Below, one piece after another: positions 31,887-53,220 of a stretch of DNA of 54,660 nucleotides. The DNA is from Propionibacteriaceae bacterium. Its GTDB lineage: Bacteria > Actinomycetota > Actinomycetes > Propionibacteriales > Propionibacteriaceae. The position numbers and the translations under genes were made by a program. Position 1 is the first letter of the stretch. Every line of letters begins with the position of its first letter. The stretch is from assembly GCA_009778725.1 (NCBI GenBank), contig WRFP01000001.1, positions 1 through 54,660 on the forward strand. Direction: 5' to 3'. Below the pieces are notes generated by a model, which was not told the DNA's origin, did not search any database, and saw only the letters and a list, made by a program, of their open reading frames with translations.

Positions 31887-31979
31887 CTTACGCCAGGTCC
31901 CCCCATGACCAGCCCCATGGTTTACCAAAAGTGACATTTCCGATGCCTGGTGTTTGATGAAAAGATAGAATATTTCTCC

Positions 31980-32744
31980 ATGAAATGGTCTCAGAAGAAC
32001 GCCAACCACCGGATCCAGCACGTCGTAGGGATATCTGCTCTCCTCCTGGTCATCACTGTCACAGTTGCCGGATGCTCGTCGACTCCCTCCGGAGATGCGG
32101 GCCTGGTCTCGTCGGGCTCGGTCACGGCTTCGGTGACCCCTGGTCAGTCACCAACCACCCAGGATAACCAGAACACCGCAACGACAATGCCCAACCAGCA
32201 GGCAGTGGCGAATTTCGAGCAGTTGTGCCAGGAGAAGATTGGGACTGACACACATGCCACGGGAACTGTGACGATCGACCACAAAGCCTGGGGTGCGACA
32301 ACGATCGTGTCCTGTGGTCCTACAGATGTCGTACCCAGCACTGCCGAAGGCGTGCTCGCCGTCGACTCGACTGGAACAGTCACCTGGAACTCAGGCGTAC
32401 CCGCTGACGTCAACAGCCAAGAGTTCGCCCTGGCCAACCCCGCCACAGACGCAAGCGGCAACATCTTCATCACCTACAACCCGGGCCGCTACGACGGAGT
32501 CATGATCCTCCACCCGACCGACACCGGGATGGAAATCCTCGCCGGCAGCTACTACGAGGACATCGACCCCGCGGCAACGACGAGCTATCCCAACGACTTC
32601 TACCAATCACAGTTGGTCGGCCCAGGTTCCGACGGCCTCTATCAGATCGCCAAGTCCGTCAACGACTGCGTCCCCGACTGTGCCAGCGGACAAACCACCA
32701 CCCAGGTGTACGCCTGGAACGGCCAGTCGTACGAAACGAAGTGA
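31980..32744 (+). CDS. Hypothetical lipoprotein
   Basis: MKWSQKNANHRIQHVVGISALLLVITVTVAGCSSTP gives a lipobox. I recognised no family for the mature part. Confidence 0.6.
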   Translation: MKWSQKNANHRIQHVVGISALLLVITVTVAGCSSTPSGDAGLVSSGSVTASVTPGQSPTTQDNQNTATTMPNQQAVANFEQLCQEKIGTDTHATGTVTIDHKAWGATTIVSCGPTDVVPSTAEGVLAVDSTGTVTWNSGVPADVNSQEFALANPATDASGNIFITYNPGRYDGVMILHPTDTGMEILAGSYYEDIDPAATTSYPNDFYQSQLVGPGSDGLYQIAKSVNDCVPDCASGQTTTQVYAWNGQSYETK

Positions 32745-32898
32745 TCGACGCTCACACCCTGATCTGATGAACCTGTCTTCCTGGCAACACTGATCGCCAA
32801 GTCCTAGACGTAAATCAAGGCACTCAAGAATTCGATAGTAGCGGCTGGGAACTCACGTGGCTAGGATGTGGTAAAACCACGAGGCAAGGAGGCCAATC

Positions 32899-34023
32899 AT
32901 GGTCCATTCTGTTCCGCGCATTCTTAGTTTTGTGTGCTCTGGTGCACTGGTTGTGGGATGTCTTTCCATTCCAGTTCTTGCGCAAGCCGACGAGACCAAT
33001 ATCGTTCCCGATGCGGCCCTGCGTCAGTGCCTTGCCACCGCGATGCACACTGCGGGAACGGGAGCTTCCCCGGGGTCACCAGAATATGCAACAGAGGCTG
33101 ACTCTATTTCCCAAGCTGACCTCGATGCCCTCGCAGCCGCAACCACATGGCCCTACGGGATCAGTTGCACAGGTGTGGCTTCATTGGAGGGTTTGCAGTA
33201 TCTTCATGATCCAGAGCTGATGTACTTACGAATACCCACCACAGGAGTCTTCATTCCCCCAGTGGCGTCGCAGGTCACACTTACTTCGGACGACCCGAAT
33301 ATCGTTCAACAGGATGATTCCTATCGAACAACCCCAGTTGAGGAGTGGCCTGAACCGTACTGGACCAACAAGGATGTGACCGTGACTGCCACCAGTACGG
33401 ATCCAGCGGCTGCCATCCGCTACACATCGGTTTTCCCATATACCGATGTCGTGGACCCGCAATCCGCATCCGTCGAAAACTACTTCACAGGGCCTCTGAC
33501 CTTTTCAACTGAAGGTGTACGTCTTATAACTGCCTGGGCAACATCCTGCGATTGCGCCCTTGATGTTTTGTCGCCTGCTTCCATGCTTGTTGCCATCGAC
33601 AAGACACCCCCAACAGTTGATTCTATGCAGGTCGACGGAGGTTTCACCCTTGTCGCACATGACAATCTGTCAGGTGTCGCATCCGTAGAATACATCGGTA
33701 GTGAAAATGGCCCATCAGACTGGACACCATACACCAGCCAAGTCCTCGCCCTGAAAGGAATTGGCGGAACATTCGGGTATCGTGCAACTGACAAAGCTGG
33801 CAATGTCTTCACTTCACCCATCGTCCTTTACGACAATGGAGATCTCTACGTTCCGGGTAATCCTGACTCTGATTCCAACGCATCAGGACCATCTGCCATC
33901 CCCAGTGGAGGCTCAGTGGCTGATCCGACGCATGGATCTGCACTAGCTGCAGCCCTCGGATTGCTGATCATCCTGGGGAGTGGGGCTGCTTTCTTCACTC
34001 GTCGCAACTTACAACACCCGTGA
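32899..34023 (+). CDS. Secreted cell-surface protein with Ig-like/OmpL47-type repeats and a C-terminal TM anchor
   Basis: AAGGAGG RBS. The signal peptide ends PVLAQA-DE. DKTPPTVDS....DNLSGVASVEY...W..Y....YRATDKAGNV resembles an Ig-like surface module. The C-terminus reads ALAAALGLLIILGSGAAFFTRRN, with no LPXTG or LAXTG. Confidence 0.65.
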   Translation: MVHSVPRILSFVCSGALVVGCLSIPVLAQADETNIVPDAALRQCLATAMHTAGTGASPGSPEYATEADSISQADLDALAAATTWPYGISCTGVASLEGLQYLHDPELMYLRIPTTGVFIPPVASQVTLTSDDPNIVQQDDSYRTTPVEEWPEPYWTNKDVTVTATSTDPAAAIRYTSVFPYTDVVDPQSASVENYFTGPLTFSTEGVRLITAWATSCDCALDVLSPASMLVAIDKTPPTVDSMQVDGGFTLVAHDNLSGVASVEYIGSENGPSDWTPYTSQVLALKGIGGTFGYRATDKAGNVFTSPIVLYDNGDLYVPGNPDSDSNASGPSAIPSGGSVADPTHGSALAAALGLLIILGSGAAFFTRRNLQHP

Positions 34024-34377
34024 TCTGAACAAGTAATACTGACACTATTGACACTAGTCAGCCCCAGATACCAGCATCACCCAGGGTGTCGTGAGGTGCC
34101 GCACGGTCGGATCCTCAACTCTCTGTCATAATGAGGGCTATTGCCAGTTCCAGTGAAGACGCGAAATCTGTGGGAGGTGATTGGTCGTCCGCGGTCATTG
34201 TACTTCTGTGTTGTGCGACGGCCATTCTTAGTGGCACCGATGCCCTCTTGTCTGTCCGGTATAAGCCCACTACTGCACCGGTATAAGGAGCTACCCTAGA
34301 CTGACTCTGTTGCCCTTGCCACCGATGACAACAAGTGGCTCACATGTCATCCACAAGGGTTACGGAGAGGATCACAG

Positions 34378-36342
34378 ATGGCCGGTACCGATGTCACTGT
34401 GCCACACAACACATTGCGGCAACGTTTACACACATGGCTCACAGCGCACCCTGCAACCTTGTGGATAACAATACCTATCGTCATCTATCTCGTACTCGTG
34501 GGTCTCGGAGTGACACAGTCGTCAATCGGCATCGACATGTTGAGACAAGATCCTTCGGCACCTTTGGGCCTCCAGATCGGCGCAGCACGTTCCATTCGAA
34601 GTGACGAATTCCTGACCGGGACCCCTAATGCCCTGGGCATCGCTGAAACTGGACAAAACCCTAATCTCAACCCCCTGACCAGCGGCGCTGGGGTTTTTTC
34701 CGGCTACCTCAGTGGCCCAATCTCATCAATTGTTCTGTTCGACCGATCTCTTCTCCGGCTTGGAACCATACTTCCTGTGGCCAATGTATTTTCGGCATAT
34801 TGGTGGCTACCAACCTTACTTCTGACGTTAGCCCTGCCTGCGCTCTTTAAGTTCTTGACCGGTAATCGTTGGTTGGGGCTGTTTGCGGCCGTACTCATGT
34901 TCGCTAATCCGTCCAACGTGTGGTGGAGTTTCTCGCTGACCAACACCCTTGGGTACGCAGTGGCAGGTTCTTTCTGCCTGGTTGCTGCCACTCGAGCCTG
35001 GCGACAGCGCGCATTTCTGAGATCGGTCTTGCTCATGATCCCCACATCAGTGCTCTTGGCGCGCACCGTTTTCCAGTATCAGCCATATGCCATCGTCATG
35101 GTTCCCGGAGTCCTCCTTCCCATCGTTGTGGCGTTGTGGGCGAAAAAGAAGACTCGCATACCAAGCATTATTGCCGTCGGGCTTTCTGGCATCCTCACTC
35201 TCGCATGGGTCGGCATCGTCCTCATTGAGGCACATTCTGAGCTTTCTGCACTGACTGAAACCGTTTATCCAGGGTCACGACGATCCACCGGGTTACCATC
35301 ATCTCCGGGGTCACTCTTCGGCGCTCCGGCGCTGTTCGATCTGGAACATGCCTCAGTGGTCGCAAGCAATCAGTCTGAAATAACGTCTGGCTATAACATC
35401 TTGATTGTTCTCGCACTTGTGCTCGCCCTTTCGGGCCTTCGTTTCACTAGTAGACGACTCGCTTGGGCCTGGCGGGCAGGCGTTGTGGTGTGTGGAATCT
35501 GGCTCGCTTGGTGCATGGTATACACCGGGAGTTGGAGCTCAAGGTTGCCCCTGTTTAACCTCATACCACCGGACAGAGCAAGACAATCAGTAGGAGAAGT
35601 GATTGCGTTCCTGCTGTGCCTGACACTTGCGGCCGCTCCAAAGAAGGGCAAACCAAGAATCGTTTTAATGGGTACTCTCATCACAGCAGGCATCACCGCC
35701 TGGGCTGCTTCCAATCTCAGAGTTGAGAACATTCCGTCACTGGGCTTTCGCGACATCGCCCTGGCCACTATTGGTGTCGGCGCCATCAGTGCACTCCTGC
35801 TCTGGCGGCCACGGCACTGGGCCGGTTATGGCCTGACTGTCATCCTTAGTGCCGCAACAGTGATAACCGTCAACCCGATACTGTTCGGTTTGGGTGATTT
35901 GTACACATCAAGTACCGCTGTGTATTTTCGGGATGCAGGAGTTCAAGCGCGACAAACAGACCACCTGTGGGCAACGGATGACACTGGACTTATCTCTTTA
36001 ATGACAGCCTCAGGTGTACCAACAATCAACAGTCGAATCCTCTCCGGGCCAAACCACGCCGCCTGGAGTCGTCTGGACCCCAACCCGCAGGACATCGACT
36101 TGTGGAACCGTGGTGGTGGCACTCATATCTGGATTCAATGGGACGAGAATGCCACTGATGTCTCACTGTCCAATCCATCACCCGACATCATTCTGATCGA
36201 CTCATCGCCCTGTGTTCTGGCTGCCAGGATACCGAACCTCGAGATGATAACTTCTCACCAACCCCTGAACGCTTCATGCCTCACGTCAGCCGGTACACTC
36301 GAATGGGCTGGCCAAACCAACTACGTGTATTCGGTTAACTAG
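34378..36342 (+). CDS. Large polytopic membrane protein (654 aa), candidate GT-C-type extracytoplasmic glycosyltransferase
   Basis: GGAGAGGA RBS. At least 10 predicted TM helices. An acidic motif lies in the first outside loop after TM1 (ARSIRSDEFL). The C-terminal domain of about 150 aa is soluble. I recognised no family. Confidence 0.5.
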   Translation: MAGTDVTVPHNTLRQRLHTWLTAHPATLWITIPIVIYLVLVGLGVTQSSIGIDMLRQDPSAPLGLQIGAARSIRSDEFLTGTPNALGIAETGQNPNLNPLTSGAGVFSGYLSGPISSIVLFDRSLLRLGTILPVANVFSAYWWLPTLLLTLALPALFKFLTGNRWLGLFAAVLMFANPSNVWWSFSLTNTLGYAVAGSFCLVAATRAWRQRAFLRSVLLMIPTSVLLARTVFQYQPYAIVMVPGVLLPIVVALWAKKKTRIPSIIAVGLSGILTLAWVGIVLIEAHSELSALTETVYPGSRRSTGLPSSPGSLFGAPALFDLEHASVVASNQSEITSGYNILIVLALVLALSGLRFTSRRLAWAWRAGVVVCGIWLAWCMVYTGSWSSRLPLFNLIPPDRARQSVGEVIAFLLCLTLAAAPKKGKPRIVLMGTLITAGITAWAASNLRVENIPSLGFRDIALATIGVGAISALLLWRPRHWAGYGLTVILSAATVITVNPILFGLGDLYTSSTAVYFRDAGVQARQTDHLWATDDTGLISLMTASGVPTINSRILSGPNHAAWSRLDPNPQDIDLWNRGGGTHIWIQWDENATDVSLSNPSPDIILIDSSPCVLAARIPNLEMITSHQPLNASCLTSAGTLEWAGQTNYVYSVN

Positions 36343-36436: not shown

Positions 36437-38278
36437 ATGACGGGGGCCACTTCCAATTCTGGTGACGACACGCCATCTGTGGGGGTGAGGGGTCGTTCGC
36501 AGCCATCGTTCACACGAGTAGCCGTGGTGATACTGGGTGTGTTTGTACTCGCTCTCATCGTCGCACTTGTCTTCCATATCGGCGCTCCCCTGCTCCTGCT
36601 GACAGTCGTCCTCCTCTATGTTGTCGTACCGCTACCACGGGCGGGTGACCACGTCATCACAAGAGTGGCGGCACTAGGACTGTTCCTCCCGGTGGGGTAC
36701 AACATCCTGGGTACGGTGGGGTATCTCGTTGGACTTCACGTATCGGCCGACGTGTTCAATGCTTCTTTCGCTGCTGTTCTCACCCCGATACTTCTCCTCC
36801 GCATACGTCGAAATCCCAACCTGAACCTACCCAGGTGGTCATCTTTCGACTCCATAGTCATACTGCCTGTTTTCCTCATTCTGGCTATGGTGTTTATCAC
36901 CGTTTTTCATACCGACTTGTCGCTCGGTGACAACATCATCCGTTACATCGCGAGTTCCTCAGATGGTACGCGGCATCTGGCAATGTTCAATGACCATCTT
37001 CGATATGGCGGTAACTTCACCCTCACCATGGACTCCCGGACCACAGGAGGCACGAGCGGATACCCCACTGGTTGGCACCAAGGCTTCTCGATCATCTTCC
37101 TCAGTGTGTTCACATTCACCTCGTCCACCCCTTTTCACTACGTGGCCTACTCCTACTTCGTGGCAGCCATGATCACCTTGGTAGGCACTTCCTTGTGGGT
37201 CAGTCTTCTGACACTCACCGTCTCTCAACGGATCTCGCCCACTCAGGGCATTCTGTTCACGACATTCACATCCACGGCCGCAACGATGGTGTCACTGTGG
37301 GCAACGGTGGTGATAAGTTTCATTGTTGGCGGTTACGTCAATTTCTACCTTGTGGTTTCCTACTTCGTATGCGCAGTAACAATCGTACTTTGGTCTGACA
37401 TGCTTAACGTCCAGGAGGTGTGTCGCGCAACACTGACTGTCCTCCTCCTCTCGTGTGGCATGTCTGCGACGTGGACCATCCCCGATGTCTTCCTGGCAAT
37501 ACTCCTCATCCCCTTGGGCTATCAACTGATCACAAAACAACGCACGCAGGTGACCTGGCGAGAAGTCACCATGATTGCCTGGGGCGGGCTTGCTGCTGTT
37601 GTCACTGGGTTGACCTGGTTATATGTCATTCTGATCCACACGTCGAACGATGCCATCACTGTTCAAGGAAAAGCGGCCGGGACACCTGACCTGTGGGTGG
37701 TTCTCGTTCTCACAGTGCTATCCGTGCTCACTGCATTCAGGTCAGACTGGCTCACACTCAAGGTGGTGATCACCACCTCGATCGTCGTTTTAGCGGCCAC
37801 TGCCGGGGTCTTCTGGATGATCGCCGGACGGACCCTGCCGTACTACTTTGACAAGATCATGTTAACGATCCTTGCTGTGATCGCACCAATCGGATCATTG
37901 TTCATCATGAACATATTCAAGCGCCGACGCCTGGCAACGGTCTTAGCCATCGTTCTGGTCTTGCCCTTCATCGGGTTACTTGAGTATGTCATGGTCACCC
38001 TCATCAGTTCGGAAGCACTCCTACCTGCAACAGATAAGGAACTCGCGATCGTCACCGAAGCATATCAACGACCATTCAATGAAGGAACACGACAATACAT
38101 CGAAATCACCGATTTTCGGAGAAGTGAATTCTACAATGACATGTTACAAGCTCAATTTGTCAACCCAGGGACCTGTTACTCGGACATTACCTTTCCCTTG
38201 ATGAACCAGGATTGGGATAAGGCCCACCAGGCCGCGCGTACATGCTACGGCGATGATGTTGTTTTCATCGTGCCATAA
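36437..38278 (+). CDS. Large polytopic membrane protein (613 aa), unknown family (polymerase or GT-C-like candidate)
   Basis: At least 12 hydrophobic segments and a C-terminal soluble domain of about 110 aa. This is the lowest-GC stretch of the window. Confidence 0.45.
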   Translation: MTGATSNSGDDTPSVGVRGRSQPSFTRVAVVILGVFVLALIVALVFHIGAPLLLLTVVLLYVVVPLPRAGDHVITRVAALGLFLPVGYNILGTVGYLVGLHVSADVFNASFAAVLTPILLLRIRRNPNLNLPRWSSFDSIVILPVFLILAMVFITVFHTDLSLGDNIIRYIASSSDGTRHLAMFNDHLRYGGNFTLTMDSRTTGGTSGYPTGWHQGFSIIFLSVFTFTSSTPFHYVAYSYFVAAMITLVGTSLWVSLLTLTVSQRISPTQGILFTTFTSTAATMVSLWATVVISFIVGGYVNFYLVVSYFVCAVTIVLWSDMLNVQEVCRATLTVLLLSCGMSATWTIPDVFLAILLIPLGYQLITKQRTQVTWREVTMIAWGGLAAVVTGLTWLYVILIHTSNDAITVQGKAAGTPDLWVVLVLTVLSVLTAFRSDWLTLKVVITTSIVVLAATAGVFWMIAGRTLPYYFDKIMLTILAVIAPIGSLFIMNIFKRRRLATVLAIVLVLPFIGLLEYVMVTLISSEALLPATDKELAIVTEAYQRPFNEGTRQYIEITDFRRSEFYNDMLQAQFVNPGTCYSDITFPLMNQDWDKAHQAARTCYGDDVVFIVP

Positions 38279-38448
38279 CCCGGATCAGACATCTGACCTG
38301 CACGGTTCACCAAAACCTTCGAATGCCGGGACGATGGTCGGGTATTGGCCCTGATTTAAGGAAGATTTACGATAGGGTGAGTTTCGGTCAGGCCTACAAT
38401 TTGGTCTATAACATATCACCCCTTGTCGAATGGAAAAGGAGAAATCGC

Positions 38449-39303
38449 GTGAAGGTGCTTGTCCTGGGAGCTGGTGGAATGGCTGGGCATGTCATGGCGA
38501 TGGTGTTGGCTGACTGTGGCCTTGATGTGACTGGGCTGGCACGAGAACCGGTAGCTTGGGTGGAGAGCATCGTCGCGGATGTGCGGGATGTCGAAAGTTT
38601 GTCCGTGGTGACTCAGTTCGACGCTGTCGTGAACTGTGTCGGCGTACTGAACCGGGCTGTCGATGCCAGTCCCTACTCAGGCATCTGGGTGAATTCCTGC
38701 CTACCTCACCTCCTTGTCGAATTGGCCCGTGACAGCCATACCCGGGTGATCCACCTCAGCACCGACTGTGTCTTCTCCGGGCACGAGGGCGGTGGTTATC
38801 GCGAAGACAGCTTCAGGTCGGCTGACACTCTCTATGGCCGGTCAAAAGCACTGGGCGAAGTGGTCGATGAAAAGAATCTCACACTGAGAACCTCCATTGT
38901 CGGGCCCGACATCAATTCAAACGGGATTGGCCTGTTCACATGGTTCATGCAGCAATCGGGCAGCGTCCCAGGTTACACGCGCGTACCCTGGTCGGGCGTG
39001 ACGACCATTGCACTCGCAAGCGCCGTCGACGCGGCACTGAAGCAGGAACTGACAGGGCTCTACCATCTGGTCAACAACACCACGATCAGCAAGTACGATT
39101 TGCTGGGGCTGTTCAACGATCTGAGGGATGTTCCAGTCACCCTTGCCGCATCGGACGTGGTTCAAGAAGACAAATCTCTGATCGACACCCGTCACGATCT
39201 TAATTTTACAGTCCCAACATATGCCGATATGGTACATGATATGGGGAAATGGATAAACGAACATTCTCAACTCTATCCTCACTATCAAATGAAGACACTC
39301 TGA
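38449..39303 (+). CDS. RmlD-like SDR reductase (dTDP-4-dehydrorhamnose reductase family; WbvR-type candidate)
   Basis: GTG at 38449 with AAGGAG 7 nt upstream. Rossmann motif VLVLGAGGMAGHV, plus STDCVFSG and YGRSK (YxxxK). 284 aa. Confidence 0.7.
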   Translation: MKVLVLGAGGMAGHVMAMVLADCGLDVTGLAREPVAWVESIVADVRDVESLSVVTQFDAVVNCVGVLNRAVDASPYSGIWVNSCLPHLLVELARDSHTRVIHLSTDCVFSGHEGGGYREDSFRSADTLYGRSKALGEVVDEKNLTLRTSIVGPDINSNGIGLFTWFMQQSGSVPGYTRVPWSGVTTIALASAVDAALKQELTGLYHLVNNTTISKYDLLGLFNDLRDVPVTLAASDVVQEDKSLIDTRHDLNFTVPTYADMVHDMGKWINEHSQLYPHYQMKTL

Positions 39304-39431: not shown

Positions 39432-40583
39432 ATGATGACAAATGTACTTGTTTTTGTCGGGGCTTATCCCCCGGCATTCCGCGCCGGAGGACCCATCCGA
39501 GCAATTGAGGCGATGGTGGCCCGGGCTTCCTCCAATTTCGCACCATACATTGTGACCAGTGACAGGGATCTGGGAGAACCGCTTCCTGCCACGGTACGGC
39601 GCAACACGTGGGTGAGTCGGGGCGTTGCGAAGGTCAACTATGTGAACCTGCGTTCGGCGGCAGCTGTCGTACGCTGTCTGAAAATGGCACGAGCGGCCAA
39701 ACCAGGTTTCCTCTACTTCAACAGTTTGTTCGACCCCAGGCTGACCATGTTACCGATTCTCTTGTGGCGACTGGGATTCTGGGGTCCTGTCACAGCGGTG
39801 CTGGCGCCCAGAGGGGAACTCGCGGACCAAGCCCTGCGAAACCGTTCTCCGATCAAGAAGATCTACCTGGGGATATTCCGGATGCTCGGCCTATCCCGAA
39901 AGGTCCTCTGGCACTCCACCTCGGCCCAGGAGACAACTGACATATGCACCATGTTCGGAGACAAAACCGCTATTGTTCTGCGTCACGATGACATCCTACT
40001 TCCCGACAATCCTCCGCCGTTAGACAGGTGTACCTCGAAAGAGCTCAGAATCGTCTTCATTGGAAGGCTGACCGCACATAAAGGACTTCATCTGGCGCTT
40101 CAAGGACTTATCCGGGCTGGCTGCGATACCGTCATGGACATCTTCGGACCTGAGGAAAACGCCGCATATGTCCGGCAGTGTCGGCAACTGGCAGAGTCCA
40201 TGCCTTCTAATGTTCACGTGCAGTTTCGCGGAGTGGTGGTCCCAGATCAGGTGGTGGACACCTTGGCTCAGTACGATGTGCTTCTCTCCCCGACGGCGAG
40301 TGAGAATTTCGGATACACCATTGTGGAAGGATTGTGTGCCTCGTGTATCGTCGTGACGACCGCGTCGACTCCCTGGACACAGATTTTGGAGGATGGAGCC
40401 GGCATTGTCTTGGATGAGCGGTCGGCCGATGCTGTTGCCGACGCCATCAGACAGCTGGCGGGACTCACCACTGAAGAACTCACGCAATGGAGGAGCAGGG
40501 CCAGAGAGGCTTACCTGACCTGGTTGGGCAATTATCACCCCGAACATCTGTGGAATCTCGTCCCGCTCGGCGATACGCGGTAA
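39432..40583 (+). CDS. GT4-family (GT-B) glycosyltransferase
   Basis: C-terminal half: RIVFIGRLTAHKG...LLSPTASENFGYTIVEGLCASCIVV (the E-x7-E motif). Confidence 0.75.
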   Translation: MMTNVLVFVGAYPPAFRAGGPIRAIEAMVARASSNFAPYIVTSDRDLGEPLPATVRRNTWVSRGVAKVNYVNLRSAAAVVRCLKMARAAKPGFLYFNSLFDPRLTMLPILLWRLGFWGPVTAVLAPRGELADQALRNRSPIKKIYLGIFRMLGLSRKVLWHSTSAQETTDICTMFGDKTAIVLRHDDILLPDNPPPLDRCTSKELRIVFIGRLTAHKGLHLALQGLIRAGCDTVMDIFGPEENAAYVRQCRQLAESMPSNVHVQFRGVVVPDQVVDTLAQYDVLLSPTASENFGYTIVEGLCASCIVVTTASTPWTQILEDGAGIVLDERSADAVADAIRQLAGLTTEELTQWRSRAREAYLTWLGNYHPEHLWNLVPLGDTR

Positions 40584-43867: not shown

Positions 43868-43945
43868 CTCCACTCCAATCAATCAGACCAATTCTGAAGC
43901 TTGTGACAACTTTTATCCGCAGCCCATCAGCTTAGTACACACCGG

Positions 43946-44318: not shown

Positions 44319-45047
44319 TCAATCCTTTGGTGGAGTCGTTGGCCTGGTCAGCGCGATGAGCAGAGCAAGCAGACTTCGACCCAGATAGATGACTGACTTC
44401 ACCGGTGAGGTCGAGGGTTTGCCTGCCTGACGCTGTCGCATCTGGACAGGAACCTGGGTCACGGTGAGTCCTGATCGAACTGCCATGACCAAGGAGTCTA
44501 CGGTGTCACCCAGATACTCCGTTGGAAAATGAATTCTATACTGCTCGATCGCTCGTCGGTTTCCGGCACGAAATCCACTCGTGACATCGGTAAGCCGCGT
44601 GTGTGCCAAACCTGAAATGACGCGGGCAAGGATCCCCATCATGAGACGCCGGGAGGCTCCGGCAGAGTAACTTCCCACACCAGCGAACCTAGCCCCAATG
44701 GCAATGTCTGCTTCTCCCAGTGCTTCGAGAATACGGGGAATGTCTCTCGGATCATGCTGACCGTCTGCGTCCAACTGGAGAACTTGGTCATAGTCGTTAC
44801 GGTGGGCGTACTCGAACCCAGCTCGTAAGGCTCCCCCCACACCCAGATTGAAGGGGAGGCGCAACACCGAAACCCCAGAGTTTTGAGCGATGTCGGCGGT
44901 GTCATCACGGGAACCATCGTCGACGACCAAAGTGTCGATTGCGAGGTGTTGACTGCCCAATTCAGCCAGTGTCTCACCAATCACAGCTCCTTCATTCCAA
45001 GCCGGAATGATCACGAGGGTTCGAGGAGATGCGTCAGGATCGACCAT
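44319..45047 (-). CDS. GT2 polyprenyl-phosphate glycosyltransferase (DPM1/GtrB/PpgS-like)
   Basis: LVIIPAWNEGAVIG, VVDDGSRDDT and QLDADGQHDP (the DxD). It is 242 aa and soluble, with no C-terminal TM domain. Confidence 0.8.
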   Translation of the reverse strand: MVDPDASPRTLVIIPAWNEGAVIGETLAELGSQHLAIDTLVVDDGSRDDTADIAQNSGVSVLRLPFNLGVGGALRAGFEYAHRNDYDQVLQLDADGQHDPRDIPRILEALGEADIAIGARFAGVGSYSAGASRRLMMGILARVISGLAHTRLTDVTSGFRAGNRRAIEQYRIHFPTEYLGDTVDSLVMAVRSGLTVTQVPVQMRQRQAGKPSTSPVKSVIYLGRSLLALLIALTRPTTPPKD

Positions 45048-45084: not shown

Positions 45085-46353
45085 TCATTGTTCTTCGGTC
45101 CCACGATCTGATGTGCGAGGGATCGCCATCATGCCAGTGACATGGACAATAACTCCACACGAGGATCCGCCGATGAGGGCCACGATGACTGTGACTGAAA
45201 GGGTCCACGGAATCCACAACATCCCGATCGTCACCACGATGGCGACGACCCACCCCGTCATGTAGACCGTATGTTGATTATTGGCCAGGGCCAATGTTCC
45301 TGTCAGAACGACGAGACATAAGAAGGCTGCACCTAAGGTCAGCCCACCCACTAGTAGTGGTCCGAGTCGATATTCGGGGCGCACCAAACCCAGCAGAGGC
45401 GGCCCAATGATCCCTGCCACAATCGACGCCAGAACGCCCAGCCCCAGAACAGCAAGCACGATTCGACCAACGACTCGAGGACTTCCTCCCCGCTTGACGA
45501 AGTGAGCAACGATCATCGACTGGAAGGCGTTCAGAGGCAGCATCAATGGAGCCCGTGTCATAGAAATTGCGAAGAGCAACCCGGCCGATTCTTGGATGAT
45601 GCTGTTGCCCTCGACAAGTCCCAAAAGCGTGGGAAAACCAACCACCAATGCTGTACTGGCTAAAGTCGCCACGACCGCTTGGCTAGTTTTCCCAACATAT
45701 TCACGCACATTAGTGTCACCTCGGCTGCCGAGAATCGAACGGTATCCTTTGAAGACGAGAACCAGCACCACCCAGGTCAACGTTGCCACACCCGCCGCCA
45801 GCTTCACACCGACTAGACCTGACAATGCCAATGCAGCAATGACGATAGCGACACTGCGAACAAGCGGATCAGCCACCATGAGTACGGCCGCAGACACCCA
45901 CCGTCCCTGTCCGCCAAGAACCCCCACGACCGAGGTGTACCCCCCGTAGACGATTGCAGCCAATGCGACAACGACCACTGACAACAGCCAGTCCGAGCCA
46001 AAAACCCGCGGAGCCCACAGCAACGATGACAAGAAGAAGATCGCAACAACCCCTGTGGCAACGCCAAGTCCCGCAGGCACGACACGGACGTGATGCGTGG
46101 CTGGCACCACCATGGCTTCATCTCCAGCAAGAGCCGCAGTACGAGTGGATCGTACTGTTTCGAATTGGATGCCGCCCAAGGATCCAAAGACCCAGAAGAG
46201 CACAGACCAAAAAACAAGGAACTGGGCATTGAGTTCAGGGGACAAGACCTTCGCCATCACTACCATGAGAACGAAGCCGGCTACTCCGGCAATGCCACCT
46301 GCCAAGCCCACGGACCCCACACCAGTGAGGGTCTGCCTCGTCGGTAACTTCAC
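45085..46353 (-). CDS. Polysaccharide flippase-like (Wzx/MOP-type) membrane protein
   Basis: 422 aa with about 12 TM helices, located inside the glycan locus. I read no diagnostic motif. Confidence 0.55.
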   Translation of the reverse strand: MKLPTRQTLTGVGSVGLAGGIAGVAGFVLMVVMAKVLSPELNAQFLVFWSVLFWVFGSLGGIQFETVRSTRTAALAGDEAMVVPATHHVRVVPAGLGVATGVVAIFFLSSLLWAPRVFGSDWLLSVVVVALAAIVYGGYTSVVGVLGGQGRWVSAAVLMVADPLVRSVAIVIAALALSGLVGVKLAAGVATLTWVVLVLVFKGYRSILGSRGDTNVREYVGKTSQAVVATLASTALVVGFPTLLGLVEGNSIIQESAGLLFAISMTRAPLMLPLNAFQSMIVAHFVKRGGSPRVVGRIVLAVLGLGVLASIVAGIIGPPLLGLVRPEYRLGPLLVGGLTLGAAFLCLVVLTGTLALANNQHTVYMTGWVVAIVVTIGMLWIPWTLSVTVIVALIGGSSCGVIVHVTGMMAIPRTSDRGTEEQ

Positions 46354-46535: not shown

Positions 46536-47528
46536 TCATCGAATACCTTCTTGCCGCATGACAACCATCATGTAATTTGAACCCAAGCGGGTGTGTTTAC
46601 GAATCTCCCGGCGAGAGCGTGCGTACATCGGCAGCCGAAGCAGACCGATCACGTAAGTACCAAGTACTTTGCGCATGCCCTTGACTCCGTGATCGTGCTT
46701 GACTTGTTGCAGGAAATCCTTGATCCCTTTGAGTAACTCAGGCATGGACAGGAAGATCAAACGCCATGGTGTGTTTTTGTACACCACAGCCAGATGGTTG
46801 CGGGCCGTCATGATCACCGGGTACATCTTCATGTTCTTCTTGGCACTCACCGATCCCATATGGTACGCAACTGCCGTTGGCACAAAGAACGAGTCATATC
46901 CTGCCACCAAGGCGCGATACGCGACATCGACGTCTTCGTAGTACATGTAAAAGCGCTCGTCGAAGAAGTAACTGTCGGGGTCAGGTTGGTGCTCGATGAA
47001 ATCGCGGCTGAACATCGCCGCTGCGGCATTGACACCAAAGACCTTTCGAGGATAGTACGCCTCGTGATCCACCAGTTCGGTGTAGCCGTACTGAATCCCC
47101 TGGAGTCGCTTCGACACATAGATATGGCGGGAATCGACAATGTGATGGTCGTAATAATCTAAGGTCAAACCCTGGGCCGCTGCCACAGAAGGTTTGCCGT
47201 CAACGTAGTCCAAAATGTTGCGGGTCCACTGCGTGTCCAACACCGCATCCGAATTGATCAGTGCCACCCACTGCACATCTGGATTTCGCAGAGCGTGCCG
47301 AATGAGAACATTGTTTCCCTTAGCGAACCCGAGGTTACGCGTGGACTTGAGAAGATGAACCTTGCGATACTTGCGCACCTGTGTGATCGTGTCGTCTGAG
47401 GAATCATTGTCCAGAACATAGACATCAGACTTCACACCGGCCTGCGCAAAGATGGAATCGATGCATCCGGCAATGATGTCCGCATTGTTCCAGGTGACGA
47501 TCAGGTACGCTACTGTCCGATTTTCCAT
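46536..47528 (-). CDS. GT2-family glycosyltransferase (WbbL/rhamnosyltransferase-like)
   Basis: YLIVTWNNADIIAGCIDSI and YVLDNDSSDDT, with LINSDAV as the DxD region. Confidence 0.75.
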   Translation of the reverse strand: MENRTVAYLIVTWNNADIIAGCIDSIFAQAGVKSDVYVLDNDSSDDTITQVRKYRKVHLLKSTRNLGFAKGNNVLIRHALRNPDVQWVALINSDAVLDTQWTRNILDYVDGKPSVAAAQGLTLDYYDHHIVDSRHIYVSKRLQGIQYGYTELVDHEAYYPRKVFGVNAAAAMFSRDFIEHQPDPDSYFFDERFYMYYEDVDVAYRALVAGYDSFFVPTAVAYHMGSVSAKKNMKMYPVIMTARNHLAVVYKNTPWRLIFLSMPELLKGIKDFLQQVKHDHGVKGMRKVLGTYVIGLLRLPMYARSRREIRKHTRLGSNYMMVVMRQEGIR

Positions 47529-47532
47529 GTCG

Positions 47533-49131
47533 CTATATCCCTACCGTATCTTTCAGGACGACAAGCGCGTCGCGGGGGGAGAGATTGTCGTTCAACAGGG
47601 TGTCACGGAAGGGCATCGCAGCCGGATACAACCTGATCAGCCCCCACAGAACAAGACGGTCAGACCATGTTCTGCCATCGACGACACCGGTGAGGAAGAG
47701 CTCGGGATGGTCAGTATTCACCGGGAATGCCACCACCGCATCGTCGAGTCCATCAACGTCGCGAAGCAGATCCGGCAAGCCTGCCAGTCCGGAGAACGTC
47801 ACATCACCGCGGTGATACAGCGGACGAAGCTGACCCTTGTGCTCCATGAAGCCGGCGTTGGCCACCAAATTATCGTTGCCGGTCATCAACAACGGAGCCA
47901 CCGCCGCAGTCTGCGGCAGTCTGAGCGCCCCGACCAACTCATCGAGCCAACTACGGTCTTTCGGAAGATACATGGCCCGCATGACGACCACCGCATCAGC
48001 CTCACTGGCAGTGCACTGCTCGGAAATATCTGCTGTCGGTGGAAGGCACCTGAAACGTGGAACAACCCACGTGGCACCGGTCGCGGCTCGCAGTTGTTCT
48101 TCGAAACGACTATTCACCCTGACGTCGTCCGAGACCATCACGACGACATCGACCCGACACGACCACCGAGGATGGCAGTGATACCATGCTGGCTTGTCAG
48201 GAAGGATATCGACGCCATCATGGTCCACACCGATGGCATCGAGATAGTCTGTCACCGCAGCCGTGCCTGCTTTCATTGCGTACGACTTTTGGCCGATCGC
48301 ACGCGAGGACGAGAACTGCGCCTCTCGCCAGTGGTAGAGAATCTTCGGAATATGCACAGTTGTGATCTCACGCGGCAGAGCATGAATCCTCAACAACAGG
48401 TCATAATCCTGGGCACCATCGCGATCCGGACGCAACAGCCCCACTTCCCGTACCAGATCTGCCCGGATGACCGACAAGTGATTCGTGTAGTTCATCTCCA
48501 GGAACATATGCGGCGACCAGGATGGCTTGAACGAGGGGCGCTTGCGATACCACCCGTCATCGCTGATCGCATCCTCATCGGAGTAGATGACATCCACATC
48601 CTCGTGATCGGCGATCACCACAGCGGCCTCGTTCAGCGCATGGTGTGACAAGGTGTCGTCATGGTCGACGAACACAATGAACCGACCGCGCGCCTGCTGA
48701 ATCCCGGTATTGGTGTTACTCGCGATTCCTGCGTTCGTACCCAGACGGACATATCGGAACCGCGAGTCACCATGCGACAACTCTTCCAGACGAACAGATC
48801 GATCCCGGTCAGTTGAGGCATCAGCCATGATCATTTCCCAATCGGCAAATGACTGCGACGCCACGGAGTCGAGCAGTGGGATGAGGTATTCATCTGGCGT
48901 GTTAAAGAAGGGTACGACGATGCTGAACAATGGCTGTTCTGCGTTCGGTTCAGTTCTCAACGGCGCATGGAAGACAAAAGGTTCGACATTCTTGATGTAT
49001 GCCTCGAAGGGGTGTGTCCAGGACAATTCGCGAGTCAAACCCATCCGCGAGGTCACTTTGCGAATGGTTTGTCCCCGCGCTGAATAGACAGGAAACAAGA
49101 TTGCGATCCCTCTTCGGAATAATGATGGCAT
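47533..49131 (-). CDS. Two-domain GT2 glycosyltransferase (532 aa), paralog A
   Basis: FSIVVPFFNTPDEYLIPLLDSVASQSF, VFVDHDDTLS and YSDEDAIS, plus a second C-terminal domain of about 230 aa. Confidence 0.8.
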   Translation of the reverse strand: MPSLFRRGIAILFPVYSARGQTIRKVTSRMGLTRELSWTHPFEAYIKNVEPFVFHAPLRTEPNAEQPLFSIVVPFFNTPDEYLIPLLDSVASQSFADWEMIMADASTDRDRSVRLEELSHGDSRFRYVRLGTNAGIASNTNTGIQQARGRFIVFVDHDDTLSHHALNEAAVVIADHEDVDVIYSDEDAISDDGWYRKRPSFKPSWSPHMFLEMNYTNHLSVIRADLVREVGLLRPDRDGAQDYDLLLRIHALPREITTVHIPKILYHWREAQFSSSRAIGQKSYAMKAGTAAVTDYLDAIGVDHDGVDILPDKPAWYHCHPRWSCRVDVVVMVSDDVRVNSRFEEQLRAATGATWVVPRFRCLPPTADISEQCTASEADAVVVMRAMYLPKDRSWLDELVGALRLPQTAAVAPLLMTGNDNLVANAGFMEHKGQLRPLYHRGDVTFSGLAGLPDLLRDVDGLDDAVVAFPVNTDHPELFLTGVVDGRTWSDRLVLWGLIRLYPAAMPFRDTLLNDNLSPRDALVVLKDTVGI

Positions 49132-49238: not shown

Positions 49239-50834
49239 TCAGTTCTTCCACGTGGATTTCCTCAACACAACAGATGCGCCATTGAGGACGAGATTGTCGT
49301 TGAAACGCGTGTCACCGAAGGGAACCTTGGCTGGGAGGAAGCGCACCGGGCTCCACAGCACGAGATTGTCACGCCAGTGTCTTCCATCGACGACACCGGA
49401 AACGAAGAGCTCGGGATGATTCGCCTGCGTGCGAAAGGCCACAACGGCATCGCTCAGCCCATCGACATCGCGAACGAGATCCGCCGGGCCAGCAAGAGGA
49501 AAACCAGTGGTGTGGGCTCCTGGGTACAAGGGTCTCAACTGACCCTGGAACTCAACCCAACCCGAATCAACCACCCGATCACGAACGGCGCCCATCAACA
49601 GTGGGGCAACAGCCGCCGTCTGGGGCAATGCCAGTACCCCCACCAGCTCATCGAGCCAAGTGGAATCTTGCGGGAGAAACATGGATCTGATCACCACCAC
49701 CGCGTCAGCGGACGCGTCACAATGCTCCCGGACATCAGCACTGGGTGGGATGGACACAAACCTCGGTGTGACCCATCGGGGGGTAGTCGCCTCACGTAAC
49801 AGTTTCTCAAATTGGCGGTTCGTCCGGGCATCTGGTGACACCATGACGATGACATCGGTGCGGCATGACCACCGGGGATGACAGTGATACCACCAGGGTT
49901 TGTCCGGCAAAAGACTCACACCCTCGTGCTCCACCCCGATGGCATCCAGATAGTCACGCAACGCGACTCGTCCAGCCTCCACTGCGTACGACTTGGTGTC
50001 CAAAGTTCGCAACGTCGAGTTCTCCGCCTTCCTCCAGTGGTAGAGGACCTTCGGGATATGCACCACTGTCAATTCTTGCAAGGTGTGAATCCTCAGCAGC
50101 AGATCGTAGTCCTGCGCACCGTCGAGTTCAGGGCGAAACCCTCCGATCCGCCTGATCAGTTCGGCGCGAATCACCGACAGATGATTGACATAGTTCATTT
50201 CAAGGAGCATGTGAACCGACCAGGACGGCTTGAACAATGGACGCATCCGGCGCTTCCCGTCATCGCTCAACACATCCTCGTCGCTGTAGACCACATCCAC
50301 GTCCCGATGGTCTGCGATCACGGCGGCGACCTCATTGAGCGCATGTGGTGAGATCGTGTCATCGTGATCGACGAATACGATGAACTGCCCGCGCGCCTGT
50401 TTCAACGCTTCGTTCGTGTTGGCCGAAATTCCCAGGTTCCCAGGCAGACGGACGTAGTGAAACCTCGAGTCCAGACCAGACAATTCCTGGATCCGATCTG
50501 CCCTCGTCTCATCGGTCGACGCATCGGCGATGATGAGTTCCCAATCCTGGAAAGACTGAGCACGCAGGCAGTCAAACAACGGATTCAGGTACTTGTCGGC
50601 AGTGTTAAAAAACGGGATGACAATGCTGAACAGAGGCTGATCCGTGGCATTCGGCGTGGCAACCGGTGAAAGAAACGAGAATGGTTCTACAGCCTTGATG
50701 TACTTCTGGTACGGATTTGTCGCCAAGAACTCACACAGGGCGCTCAGCCGGGACATCGCCACTCGAACCACCTGTCCTCGTGCAGTATGCACGGGAAACA
50801 CACGCTGAAGTCGGCGTCCGATCAATCGTTGCAT
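49239..50834 (-). CDS. Two-domain GT2 glycosyltransferase (531 aa), paralog B
   Basis: FSIVIPFFNTADKYLNPLFDCLRAQSF, VFVDHDDTIS and YSDEDVLS. It is collinear with paralog A over its full length. Confidence 0.8.
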   Translation of the reverse strand: MQRLIGRRLQRVFPVHTARGQVVRVAMSRLSALCEFLATNPYQKYIKAVEPFSFLSPVATPNATDQPLFSIVIPFFNTADKYLNPLFDCLRAQSFQDWELIIADASTDETRADRIQELSGLDSRFHYVRLPGNLGISANTNEALKQARGQFIVFVDHDDTISPHALNEVAAVIADHRDVDVVYSDEDVLSDDGKRRMRPLFKPSWSVHMLLEMNYVNHLSVIRAELIRRIGGFRPELDGAQDYDLLLRIHTLQELTVVHIPKVLYHWRKAENSTLRTLDTKSYAVEAGRVALRDYLDAIGVEHEGVSLLPDKPWWYHCHPRWSCRTDVIVMVSPDARTNRQFEKLLREATTPRWVTPRFVSIPPSADVREHCDASADAVVVIRSMFLPQDSTWLDELVGVLALPQTAAVAPLLMGAVRDRVVDSGWVEFQGQLRPLYPGAHTTGFPLAGPADLVRDVDGLSDAVVAFRTQANHPELFVSGVVDGRHWRDNLVLWSPVRFLPAKVPFGDTRFNDNLVLNGASVVLRKSTWKN

Positions 50835-51171
50835 GTACGATGGCCTCTCCGTTTTTATGGGCTCGTGAGTTTACAGTACGACTCGCACGCGCCTGGAGCA
50901 ACATCGATACGTGTTCACGCCGGGAAAGCCTCTCATCGATTTTATCGAGCATCTATACTCTGTATGGATGGTGCTGTCATTGGGAGTCCCAATGGCGTGG
51001 CCTCATGGTCACCACGCGCGCAGGATATCTGCCCGTCTCAGGCTGGTTCAGCATCTTGGACCGCAATGGCTACACGTGGTTGACTTATCTGGTCAACACA
51101 GGAAGGCGGATCAGACATTGAGCACAGCCAGTGATCGAGCCGATCGCCTGTCACAGGAACCTCTCCATGAC

Positions 51172-52017
51172 ATGTTCCCGCGACACACGATGCTGAAGGG
51201 ATCTCTTGGCTCCATCCAAGAAATCTGGAAGCGCCGAGAATTGGTCAACCTGCTCGTACGCCGCGAGATCCGGGCCAAGTACAAGGACTCTGCCCTCGGC
51301 CTGGTCTGGAGTTTGATCCGCCCCTTGGTGCTGCTGGCGATCTACTACGTCGTCATCGGCAAGTTCCTGGGAGCCACCAGGATGATCGCGAACTTCCCCA
51401 TCCACCTCTACGCCGGGCTGACCCTGTGGACCTTGTTCCAAGAGGCGGTCTTCGCCGGAACCGGGTCGATCCTCGCCAATTCGGCCATCGTCAAGAAGAC
51501 GGCACTGCCCCGTGAGATCTTCCCGCTGACCAGCATCGGCGCGGCTGGTTTCAATTTCACCATCCAGTTGGTGATCCTCATCGTGGCCGTCTCCTTCACC
51601 ACCGGGTTCGACTGGTCGATCGGCTTCCTCCACTTCCCCCTGGCCATCGTGACGATCGTCACCTGGGCGACCGCCTTCGCCCTGCTGCTGTCCGCCCTCA
51701 ACGTCTACATGCGCGACGTCCAGCACCTGGTCGAAGTGGTCCTGATGATCGGATTCTACGTATCACCGGTCATCTACAGCTGGGGAATGGCCGCTCCCCA
51801 CCTGTCCGGGGTGTTGCAGGAAATCTACCTGGCCAACCCGATCACACTGGCTGTGATGGGCACCCAACGAGTCGTCTGGGACGCCACTCCACCCTTCCCG
51901 TGGCCCACCCACTTGGGAACCCGTCTGCTCATCGCGTGGATCGTCGGTCTCGTGGCAGTTTTCTTGGCACAACGCCTCTTCAATCGCCTTCAAAGCAACT
52001 TTGCCCAGGAGATCTAG
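51172..52017 (+). CDS. ABC-2 type polysaccharide export permease (Wzm/TagG/RfbD-like)
   Basis: EIWKRRELVNLLVRREIRAKYKDSALGLVWSLIRPL is the ABC-2 N-terminal signature. Six TM helices. The start is uncertain (TTG 51118, ATG 51172 or ATG 51190). Confidence 0.8.
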   Translation: MFPRHTMLKGSLGSIQEIWKRRELVNLLVRREIRAKYKDSALGLVWSLIRPLVLLAIYYVVIGKFLGATRMIANFPIHLYAGLTLWTLFQEAVFAGTGSILANSAIVKKTALPREIFPLTSIGAAGFNFTIQLVILIVAVSFTTGFDWSIGFLHFPLAIVTIVTWATAFALLLSALNVYMRDVQHLVEVVLMIGFYVSPVIYSWGMAAPHLSGVLQEIYLANPITLAVMGTQRVVWDATPPFPWPTHLGTRLLIAWIVGLVAVFLAQRLFNRLQSNFAQEI

Positions 52018-53220
52018 ATGGGTGTTGAGGTCGTACGGGTCACGGATGTCAACAAGACATTCACCATCAAGAAACAAAAGTCTCTCAAAGAGCGCTTGGT
52101 CAATTACCGTACTGGCAAACTCCATGAAGAGACCTTCGCCGCGTTGAAAGACATTAACCTGTCCATCGATCTGGGAGAGTCGGTCGGTTTGATCGGCCCG
52201 AACGGATCCGGGAAATCGACTCTGTTGAAAATCATCGGCGGGATCCTGTCTCCAGACTCCGGCCAGGTCTTCACCAGAGGACGAGTTGCGGCACTGCTCG
52301 AATTGGGGGCAGGTTTCCATCCAGACTTGTCGGGCCGGGAGAACACCTTCCTGAACGCATCCGTGCTCGGATTGACCCGCGAGGAGACTGAGCAGCATTT
52401 CGACGAGATTGTTGAATTCTCCGGTATCGGGAACTTCATCGACACCCAAGTCAAGTTCTACTCCTCGGGGATGTACGTCCGCCTCGCCTTCGCCGTCGCT
52501 GTCCATGTCGATCCGGACATCCTGCTCGTTGACGAGGTCCTCGCCGTCGGCGATGAGCCCTTCCAGAAGAAATGCATGGATAAGATCCATAGTTTCCAGG
52601 AGGAGGGCCGGACCATAGTCTTCGTGTCTCACTCGCCGGGCCAAGTGGCGGATGTGTGTGACCGCGCGATCGTGCTCGAACAAGGATCGCTGGTCGAGGA
52701 CTCGACCCCCATCGTCGCCCTCGGGCGGTTGCGCCGGGACTACCAGGAGGTCATTGCCGCCGATCAGGCGGACCAGGAATCCTCCTCCTCCCCCTATGAG
52801 GCCAAGATCGACCGCATCTACCTCACCGACTCCCGTGGTTCTCCCCACGACTCCGATTTCCAGGTGGTGATGCCACCGGGATCCGACCTTGAAATCAACT
52901 GCGAGGTAGCCTTCCCTCAGGCCGTCCCGAACTGGGCCTTTTCAGTCATCATCGAAGACTTTCTTGGCCGTACCATGGTGGAAACAGACACCCGAGAAAC
53001 TCTGCACGTGAACATGCCTTCTCAAGCCGGCACAGTACGTTTTCAGATCGCCTTGCCCGCTCTGCAACTCGGGGAGGGTGAGTACACCGTTCGGGTCAGC
53101 GTTCGTGACGATCAGGACCGGGTTCTGGATCTGCTCACTCACGCCGGTAATTTCGCCGTACGAAGCTTGAAACATGTCCTGGGACCTGTCTATTGCGAGC
53201 CCCAAGTCACCATTTTGTGA
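52018..53220 (+). CDS. Polysaccharide export ABC ATPase (Wzt/TagH/RfbE-like) with a C-terminal extension of about 150 aa
   Basis: Walker A GPNGSGKST, signature YSSGMYVRLAFA, Walker B LLVDEVLAVGD. A beta-rich C-terminal domain follows (residues ~255-400). Confidence 0.88.
   Translation: MGVEVVRVTDVNKTFTIKKQKSLKERLVNYRTGKLHEETFAALKDINLSIDLGESVGLIGPNGSGKSTLLKIIGGILSPDSGQVFTRGRVAALLELGAGFHPDLSGRENTFLNASVLGLTREETEQHFDEIVEFSGIGNFIDTQVKFYSSGMYVRLAFAVAVHVDPDILLVDEVLAVGDEPFQKKCMDKIHSFQEEGRTIVFVSHSPGQVADVCDRAIVLEQGSLVEDSTPIVALGRLRRDYQEVIAADQADQESSSSPYEAKIDRIYLTDSRGSPHDSDFQVVMPPGSDLEINCEVAFPQAVPNWAFSVIIEDFLGRTMVETDTRETLHVNMPSQAGTVRFQIALPALQLGEGEYTVRVSVRDDQDRVLDLLTHAGNFAVRSLKHVLGPVYCEPQVTIL

Follow-up and report, generated by a model that had tools for sequence, protein, structure and literature searches.

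Surface polysaccharide genes can form islands of the replacement type, classic cases being the O-antigen locus, flanked by galF and gnd, and the cps locus of pneumococci, flanked by dexB and aliA. In mycobacterial arabinogalactan assembly, galactan is exported by Wzm/Wzt and GT-C enzymes such as AftA take part, while Escherichia coli O8/O9a provides the model of ABC-transporter-dependent O-polysaccharide export, in which the carbohydrate-binding domain of Wzt is serotype-specific. Replacement flexible genomic islands have been described as encoding surface glycans (Lopez-Perez, Martin-Cuadrado, Rodriguez-Valera 2014, PMC4033161). Among rhamnose-rich wall polysaccharides, the streptococcal gacA-L cluster includes GacJ, a DUF2304 protein (10.1101/180810, where the mycobacterial galactosamine decoration of arabinogalactan by PpgS with Rv3632 is also cited), and the lactococcal cwps locus specifies a dual-chain rhamnan and PSP pathway with WpsA/B/G/J (PMC10821137). 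The locus considered here lies on contig WRFP01000001.1 of a Propionibacteriaceae bacterium (assembly GCA_009778725.1, below G000); the window is this entire contig (C1 of G000), 54,660 nucleotides in length. Between the housekeeping genes coaA and glmM it carries a tract of lowered G+C content (GC) that an earlier interpretation made from the letters alone, below the sequence-only reading, had taken for a horizontally exchanged cassette of cell-envelope glycan genes.

This tract is likely a replacement-type glycan island that was gained at the coaA-glmM site in an ancestor shared by G000 and its nearest relative, G019, was remodelled by homologous recombination, and encodes a wall-glycan pathway. 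It extends from 31418 to 53273 of the window (21.9 kb), occupying exactly the spacer that separates the stop codons of the convergent genes coaA and glmM. Across the 20 species genomes of the genus that were compared (G000-G019), the two genes are 21.9 kb apart in G000 and 16.3 kb apart in G019, the GlmM proteins of which are 97% identical in amino acid (aa) sequence, whereas 12 of the 19 other genomes (G001, G002, G005, G007, G008, G010 and G012-G017) have them adjacent, 18-272 bp apart. Both genes lie well inside different contigs in G004, G006, G009 and G018, contigs end beside both of them in G003, and G011 has no coaA match. The gene for the membrane protein DUF7657, which serves as a marker of the island, is present in two of the 20 genomes, again G000 and G019. 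Most other genera of the order have coaA-glmM gaps of 39 bp to 6 kb. These distributions bear out the insertion between conserved genes proposed by the sequence-only reading, the glmS-coaA-glmM-rpsI arrangement holding across the order and the inserted gene set being by no means universal at the site; the composition deviates as well. The most parsimonious conclusion is a single gain of the island in the ancestor of G000 and G019.

Several candidates for a related occupant of the site were rejected. The 5-20 kb flanking each gene in G004, G006, G009 and G018 has native GC and non-glycan content, indicating rearrangements and not alternative cassettes, and the gaps of 3-6 kb in other genera contain unrelated genes (GH31, GNAT, asparagine-synthase-like and a 1228-aa unknown) at native GC. 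In one genus belonging to another family of the order (G025 and four similar 8-Mb genomes) coaA and glmM are separated by 40-47 kb, an interval (C1:3253800-3299300 of G025, loci L110-L112) of native GC, 0.65-0.70, with no homologs of the island genes. A metagenome scan with glmM produced two moderately close contigs, one of which was too short; the other came from a 70%-GC lineage in which the genes following glmM are unannotated. The junctions recur in an independent metagenome-assembled genome (MAG), G019, which excludes an assembly chimera. This genome is WREX01000001.1, Propionibacteriaceae bacterium isolate Lab288P4bin17, the Lab288 of its name denoting Labiotermes labralis, a termite that feeds on soil (PMC7024585).

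The level of divergence between the two occupied sites is markedly uneven. In the backbone, G000 and G019 are 84-89% identical at the DNA level, and the alignment of the islands is a mosaic. Both contain orf264, DUF7657, orf342, a trio of DUF2304, GT2 and Wzx-like genes, GT2_330 with one GT2_53x gene, wzm and wzt. Four stretches are found in G000 alone, namely the antitoxin stretch, the OmpL47-like gene, orf613 with the RmlD-like and GT4 genes, and the WecB-like and FnlA-like genes, and beyond these there is one extra tandem GT2_53x copy; approximately 10 kb of the G000 island is consequently unmatched in G019, 8.6 kb having no homolog and 1.6 kb being the extra GT2 copy. Conversely, two modules (L002:2541-5517 and 9114-10973) are present in G019 only, the genes being for a GT1-like protein with a WsaF-like rhamnosyltransferase homolog and for a DUF2142 membrane protein. 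Their presence in place of the L-sugar set of G000 suggests that a different polymer may be made.

Synonymous (dS) and non-synonymous (dN) divergence, estimated by the Nei-Gojobori method for orthologs of the two genomes, separates the shared genes into distinct groups. Ten backbone genes have dS of 0.26-0.66, and orf264 (0.66), DUF7657 (0.53) and Wzm (0.52) resemble them, with orf342 at 0.81. By contrast, dS is saturated in six genes: DUF2304 (2.28), the GacI-like GT2 (1.93), the Wzx-like protein (1.57), GT2_330 (1.76), GT2_532 (1.38) and Wzt (1.69). Across all genes dN/dS is 0.07-0.32. Because these six genes combine a dS of 1.4-2.3 with a low dN/dS, indicating purifying selection, they are old functional alleles acquired through recombination, and not fast-evolving or decaying copies. 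The horizontal exchange postulated by the sequence-only reading is therefore supported both by the non-homologous modules and by the excess of dS in six shared genes over the 0.26-0.66 of the backbone. Third-position differences agree with this: between island orthologs they are strongly directional, G000 having A/T where G019 has G/C (771 vs 351, p=1e-36), whereas those between backbone orthologs are symmetric (529 vs 493). Furthermore, the same five-gene core is found beside rplS-lepB-rnhB on an unrelated metagenome contig (L026), with aa identities of 75% for Wzt, 67% for Wzm, 57% for GT2_53x, 62% for GT2_330 and 53% for DUF7657, so the cassette of five genes is portable.

With regard to composition, G000 is a MAG of 2.27 Mb in 234 contigs, about 70% complete, with a GC of 0.614. 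GC is 0.556 at 31890-53220, as opposed to 0.627 at 1-31000 and 0.635 from 53221 to the end of the window; in 1-kb windows the island ranges over 0.51-0.58 and the backbone over 0.61-0.66. The edges given by the sequence-only reading hold, as GC falls directly after coaA (31.4 kb) and is back up at approximately 53 kb. The drop that it reported is likewise real, but the contrast of 40-48% against about 70%, which came from hand counts of single 60-nt lines, was exaggerated: the difference is approximately 7 points, or about 2 standard deviations (SD) of the 5-kb windows of the genome (SD 0.028). Among the 1551 long open reading frames (ORFs) called genome-wide, GC at third codon positions (GC3) is 0.641 for the 16 in the island and 0.726 (SD 0.086) for the 1535 others (Mann-Whitney p=9e-5). 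The profile of GC and codon usage that had been recommended as a check thus deviates in GC and GC3, while a Karlin-type codon-bias distance does not separate the island ORFs from the rest (p=0.17). The three transcription blocks previously described are present, the first plus-strand block starting at 31950 (31462 with the antitoxin included), and the description of nearly all genes as devoted to surface glycan agrees with NCBIfam, Pfam and fold searches, by which about 16 of 19 are glycan-related.

Low GC in this genome is not confined to the island. The lowest-GC large tract, at 0.50-0.54, and the second largest of the low-GC tracts is C2:9001-29000 (locus L029), a second Wzm/Wzt glycan cluster. 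Its genes include those for a UDP-glucose dehydrogenase, a 1073-aa GT2+GT4 fusion, a GT8+GT2 fusion and further GT2 proteins, and a coiled-coil DUF7310 protein encoded there could be a chain-length regulator. Within the window itself, a second, smaller dip in GC (to 0.557) occurs at 16500-18500, just beyond the 5' end of an ORF of 2044 aa (10863-16997, minus strand).

It could be argued that the low GC of the island is not foreign at all, and instead reflects the protein composition of glycan loci, with their membrane proteins and glycosyltransferases, low expression and weaker GC-favouring selection, with drift towards AT in the G000 lineage following vertical inheritance. A number of observations are consistent with this and weigh correspondingly against a recombining, acquired island. 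The compositional deviation, although significant, is moderate, with the codon-bias distance failing to reach significance. GC at first and second codon positions (GC1 and GC2) is reduced in the island ORFs beside GC3, and part of the drop must for this reason reflect protein composition. Since the tract on C2 is another Wzm/Wzt glycan cluster, low GC is a general property of the glycan loci of G000. The island of G019 is close to its host in GC (0.605 and 0.633), unlike that of G000 (0.556 and 0.627). DUF7657 is the most difficult gene in this respect, as it has a backbone-like dS of 0.53 together with a strong shift towards AT in G000 (GC3 of 0.567 in G000 and 0.702 in G019; directional third-position differences of 125 vs 37), a combination that neither simple vertical descent nor simple replacement appears to fit neatly. 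Nevertheless, drift is an unlikely explanation of the locus as a whole. It does not account for six shared genes with a dS three to four times that of the backbone at a dN/dS of no more than 0.19, as befits old alleles, or for the approximately 10 kb of the G000 island that is unmatched in G019; moreover, the site is empty in 12 congeners, and drift cannot create an insertion.

Some further points also count against the interpretation of the locus as a replacement-type island encoding a wall-glycan pathway. The variability is seen between two species, at about 86% DNA identity, in a sample without same-species strains, a narrower basis than the strain-level variation that had been envisaged, and no donor genome has been identified. 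The G000 assembly is only about 70% complete. Family searches recognised no WbdD-like kinase/methyltransferase or other chain-terminating enzyme in the island, and there is no initiating transferase within it. Finally, all of the biochemical roles set out below are deduced from sequence and modelled folds.

Toxin-antitoxin pairs often travel with mobile elements, and the left boundary of the island coincides exactly with an orphan antitoxin gene found only in G000 (31462..31713, plus strand; PF09720, 49.7 bits). It is followed by a 58-codon ORF at 31710-31886 that resembles a truncated ParE/RelE toxin, a label that is not confirmed, as the 58-aa product has no Pfam match. These genes might be taken as the last trace of an integrative element, an integrated plasmid or a transposon that delivered the island and has since decayed. 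Such an origin seems more doubtful still than drift. No integrase, transposase or relaxase was found among the annotated island ORFs by NCBIfam and Pfam family searches, the island contains no tRNA genes, and no direct or other flanking repeats surround it; hence it behaves unlike an integrase-driven mobile element. The stretch at 31418-31961 has no counterpart in G019, and because the antitoxin stretch is absent from that genome it must have arrived later than the island. The remaining possibility, that the site was occupied ancestrally and the cluster was then lost separately in the other lineages of the genus, is scarcely credible, even though genome reduction often removes glycan loci and several genomes of the genus are small (1.6-2.1 Mb). 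It needs many independent, precise deletions to 18-272 bp in 12 genomes; similarly small gaps occur in genomes from other genera of the order; none of the other 18 genomes of the genus contains DUF7657; and the nearest outside copy of the core is at a different locus.

Returning to the favoured history, a glycan island gained once and then remodelled, the island would have entered the coaA-glmM spacer in the common ancestor of G000 and G019, and would since have been altered by homologous recombination with related clusters of other Actinomycetota, by gain and loss of modules, and by one tandem duplication. The first shared gene on the left, orf264 (31950..32744, plus strand), encodes a lipoprotein with a signal peptide and a VAGC lipobox; it is 68% identical to its G019 counterpart in aa sequence, its GC3 changes relative to that genome are symmetric, and it behaves like backbone. 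It is followed by the gene for a secreted surface protein with an OmpL47-type beta-barrel domain (NF047446, 41 bits) and, judging from sequence features, a C-terminal membrane anchor (32899..34023, plus strand), which is absent from G019 and has the lowest GC3 of the island (0.50).

At the right edge lie the genes for an ABC exporter. The Wzm ABC-2 permease (50911..52017, plus strand; PF01061, NF050109) probably has its true start near 51100-51172, and, like orf264, it displays backbone-like divergence with symmetric GC3 changes. The adjoining Wzt ABC ATPase (52018..53220, plus strand; PF00005) has a C-terminal carbohydrate-binding domain (PF14524, 47 bits). Matches of the pair to the TagH and galactan Wzt models fall below the equivalog cut-offs. 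Between G000 and G019, the ATPase domain of Wzt is 92-93% identical and the C-terminal sugar-binding domain 67-69%, a contrast that would be expected if the two organisms make different polymers. Upstream of the exporter, on the minus strand, are three GT2 glycosyltransferase genes. GT2_330 (330 aa, 46536..47528; PF00535) is a member of the five-gene core. GT2_532 (532 aa, 47533..49131; PF00535), in which PDB matches are limited to the GT2 domain, is a candidate transferase for the backbone chain and is one of two tandem paralogs, the second being of 531 aa (49239..50834); the pair is marked by a 300-nt direct repeat at an offset of 1703 nt. Both copies map to one gene of G019, and L026 likewise has a single copy, so the duplication is specific to G000.

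A second group of genes is of the kind associated with side-chain addition. The DUF7657/DUF7654 membrane protein (34378..36342, plus strand; PF24677, PF24672) has a predicted GT-C fold. Its AlphaFold2 model, built from an alignment of 29 sequences, has a predicted local distance difference test score (pLDDT) of 92 and a predicted template modelling score (pTM) of 0.90, and its best PDB matches in Foldseek are all GT-C proteins, with AftA first, followed by ArnT, STT3, DPY19 and EmbB; the top matches have a probability of 1.0, at a template modelling score (TM-score) of just 0.35-0.40. R74, D76 and E77 are invariant and lie directly after the first transmembrane helix, the acidic pair (D76, E77) falling in the first outer loop. 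From this model, DUF7657 is a candidate for a transferase acting outside the membrane with a polyprenyl-phosphate-linked donor. On the minus strand, the gene for a GT2 polyprenyl-phosphate sugar synthase of the GacI/WpsA/PpgS type (44319..45047) matches both the PpgS model (NF058614, 104 bits) and the AglJ model below their cut-offs and contains the DADGQ (DxDxQ) motif at residues 93-97. Immediately downstream of it is the gene for a small DUF2304 membrane protein with three transmembrane segments (43946..44314, minus strand; PF10066, 84.8 bits), an activator of the GacJ/WpsB/Rv3632 type.

The neighbouring orf422 (422 aa with 11 transmembrane segments; 45085..46353, minus strand) resembles Wzx-like flippases of the MOP superfamily in fold only. 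Its AlphaFold2 model (pLDDT 93) matches the lipid III flippase WzxE (9g9n) at a TM-score of 0.72-0.74 and MurJ at 0.69. The family is a large one, with at least 703 cluster representatives in a library of 1.84 billion proteins, and has no Pfam model, none of the 46 members tested having a meaningful Pfam match. By its predicted fold, orf422 would be a flippase for a lipid-linked sugar. Fold-level labels can consequently be suggested for two families lacking functional annotation, GT-C for DUF7657 and Wzx-like flippase for the orf422 family, and together with the GacI-like GT2 and DUF2304 these proteins would complete a four-component system of the GacI/J/K/L or WpsA/B/G/J type. A further polytopic membrane protein, orf613 (613 aa, 36437..38278, plus strand), is found in G000 only and has 14 transmembrane-like segments by hydropathy. 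It has no Pfam, PDB or homolog match, including in a word-seeded search of a collection of 5.8 billion proteins, and a single match, at 24% identity, among 401 genomes of the family. A relationship to DUF7657 (by hhalign) or to the DUF2142 protein of G019 (by BLASTP) was considered and none was found; that orf613 might be a polymerase or a second GT-C protein is a guess. PDB sequence searches with DUF7657, orf613, orf422 and orf342 gave no matches.

The remaining genes concern nucleotide sugars and cytoplasmic transferases. Three of them, all specific to G000, are for an RmlD-like 4-reductase (38323..39303, plus strand; PF04321, 68.8 bits; TIGR01214, 71 bits, below the equivalog cut-off; with PDB matches to RmlD), a WecB-type non-hydrolysing UDP-N-acetylhexosamine (UDP-HexNAc) 2-epimerase (41715..42839, minus strand; TIGR00236, 226 bits, above the 210-bit cut-off) and an FnlA/CapE-type UDP-GlcNAc 4,6-dehydratase/5-epimerase (42836..43882, minus strand; TIGR04130, 414 bits, below the 730-bit cut-off). 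In the PDB the last of these matches FnlA (4j2o, E=3e-118) and CapE (E=3e-108). They would constitute a precursor set of the FnlABC or WbvBRD type for a UDP-L-6-deoxy-HexNAc, which may be of the N-acetyl-L-rhamnosamine (L-RhaNAc), N-acetyl-L-quinovosamine (L-QuiNAc) or N-acetyl-L-fucosamine (L-FucNAc) type, the sequences being equally compatible with each. The nearest relatives of the FnlA-like protein are 70-81% identical, the highest values being those of unnamed metagenome proteins; because the named ones (70-74%) are all from Actinomycetota, mostly Propionibacteriaceae, they point to exchange within the phylum. Two genes for cytoplasmic proteins complete the inventory: a GT4 glycosyltransferase without counterpart in G019 (39432..40583, plus strand; PF00534, PF13692), and orf342, a soluble protein of 342 aa (40698..41726, plus strand), which has weak matches to PF13439 and PF13579 (E ~3e-3), is 84% identical in aa sequence to its G019 ortholog and is probably a GT-B glycosyltransferase.

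From these families and folds a pathway may be envisaged. [quoted passage not shown] In parallel, the GacI-like GT2 and DUF2304 would make a polyprenyl-monophosphate sugar, a unit which the GT4 protein and orf342 may lengthen, in G000 with a UDP-L-6-deoxy-HexNAc supplied by the FnlA-like, RmlD-like and WecB-like enzymes. The Wzx-like protein would then flip the lipid-linked unit, after which DUF7657 would attach this unit to the exported chain. Functions for initiation and for ligation to peptidoglycan would be encoded elsewhere in the genome; on other contigs, G000 has three LCP ligase genes and, on C51, one PF00953 gene, which could be MraY.

The genes flanking the island were named correctly by the sequence-only reading, including the 3' end of rpsI at the edge of the window. 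To the left, glmS (28300..30144, minus strand; NF001484, 859 bits; TIGR01135, 811 bits) is 96% identical to that of G019 in aa sequence. The ORF as listed spans 28300-30498, with an N-terminal extension of 118 codons overlapping the start of coaA, and the true start is probably near 30144 because the family models align only from residue 119. The type I pantothenate kinase gene coaA (30461..31417, plus strand; TIGR00554, 409 bits) supplies the left insertion boundary with its stop codon, and the stop codon of the phosphoglucosamine mutase gene glmM (53274..54620, minus strand; four PGM_PMM domains) supplies the right one. The last 13 codons of rpsI (54620..54660, minus strand), which encode its C-terminal peptide, end the window, and the remainder is on contig C149, which overlaps the final 107 nt (54554-54660). 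In G000 and in G019 the contig breaks off at one and the same point, within the 3' end of rpsI and 40 nt upstream of where glmM starts.

The concept of a recombining surface-glycan island of low GC is long established, and this one is of a familiar kind; it constitutes a well-delimited case of the gain of a glycan locus and its recombinational remodelling in an uncultured gut actinobacterial lineage. Its value lies in an exact empty-site control combined with a sister-species comparison, through which vertically inherited tracts can be separated from replaced ones, and in the fold-level labels for the DUF7657 and Wzx-like families, which recur in Wzm/Wzt glycan loci. The result refines annotation rather than opening a new question. 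A bolder proposal, which can be made only tentatively, is that the island encodes a dual-chain actinobacterial pathway similar to the lactococcal rhamnan and PSP pathway, with DUF7657 coupling the two chains, the Wzx-like family acting as flippase and orf613 being a new polymerase or second GT-C protein, and that coaA-glmM is a site of glycotype exchange, perhaps phage-driven, in gut Propionibacteriaceae.

In comparison with described systems, the island shares with mycobacterial arabinogalactan assembly an actinobacterial wall polysaccharide with Wzm/Wzt, as reflected in weak matches to models of the galactan exporter, a PpgS-like GT2 paired with a DUF2304 protein, and a GT-C model for which AftA is the best structural match. 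However, matches to the mycobacterial equivalog models are all far below their cut-offs, the island has no GlfT1/GlfT2 or decaprenyl-phospho-arabinose genes, and it is variable and not a conserved core cluster. It resembles E. coli O8/O9a in the PF14524 domain at the C-terminus of Wzt, which diverges much faster than the ATPase domain between G000 and G019, but differs in the lack of a recognisable WbdD-like terminating enzyme in the island and in the Gram-positive type of envelope of its host. The rhamnose-rich wall polysaccharide loci of streptococci and lactococci are a further point of comparison. No rmlABC (dTDP-rhamnose) genes or Rgp/Gac-type rhamnosyltransferases were identified in the G000 island, the GT-C protein is DUF7657 and not GacL or WpsJ, Pfam has no model for the family of the flippase, and the host is actinobacterial; nevertheless, these loci likewise combine an ABC exporter for the backbone chain with a GT2 polyprenyl-phosphate sugar synthase, DUF2304 as its activator, a flippase of the Wzx type and a GT-C transferase, and their variable cytoplasmic glycosyltransferases determine the structure particular to a strain or species. 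As regards replacement islands, the coaA-glmM site and this host group are outside the cases described in PMC4033161, the comparison here is at the species level only, and the emptiness of the site in most of the genus implies a lineage-specific gain preceding replacement. Like those replacement islands, the present one occupies a fixed site between housekeeping genes, has a lower GC and no mobility genes, retains the same function with a different gene content in relatives, and exhibits a mosaic divergence consistent with homologous recombination.

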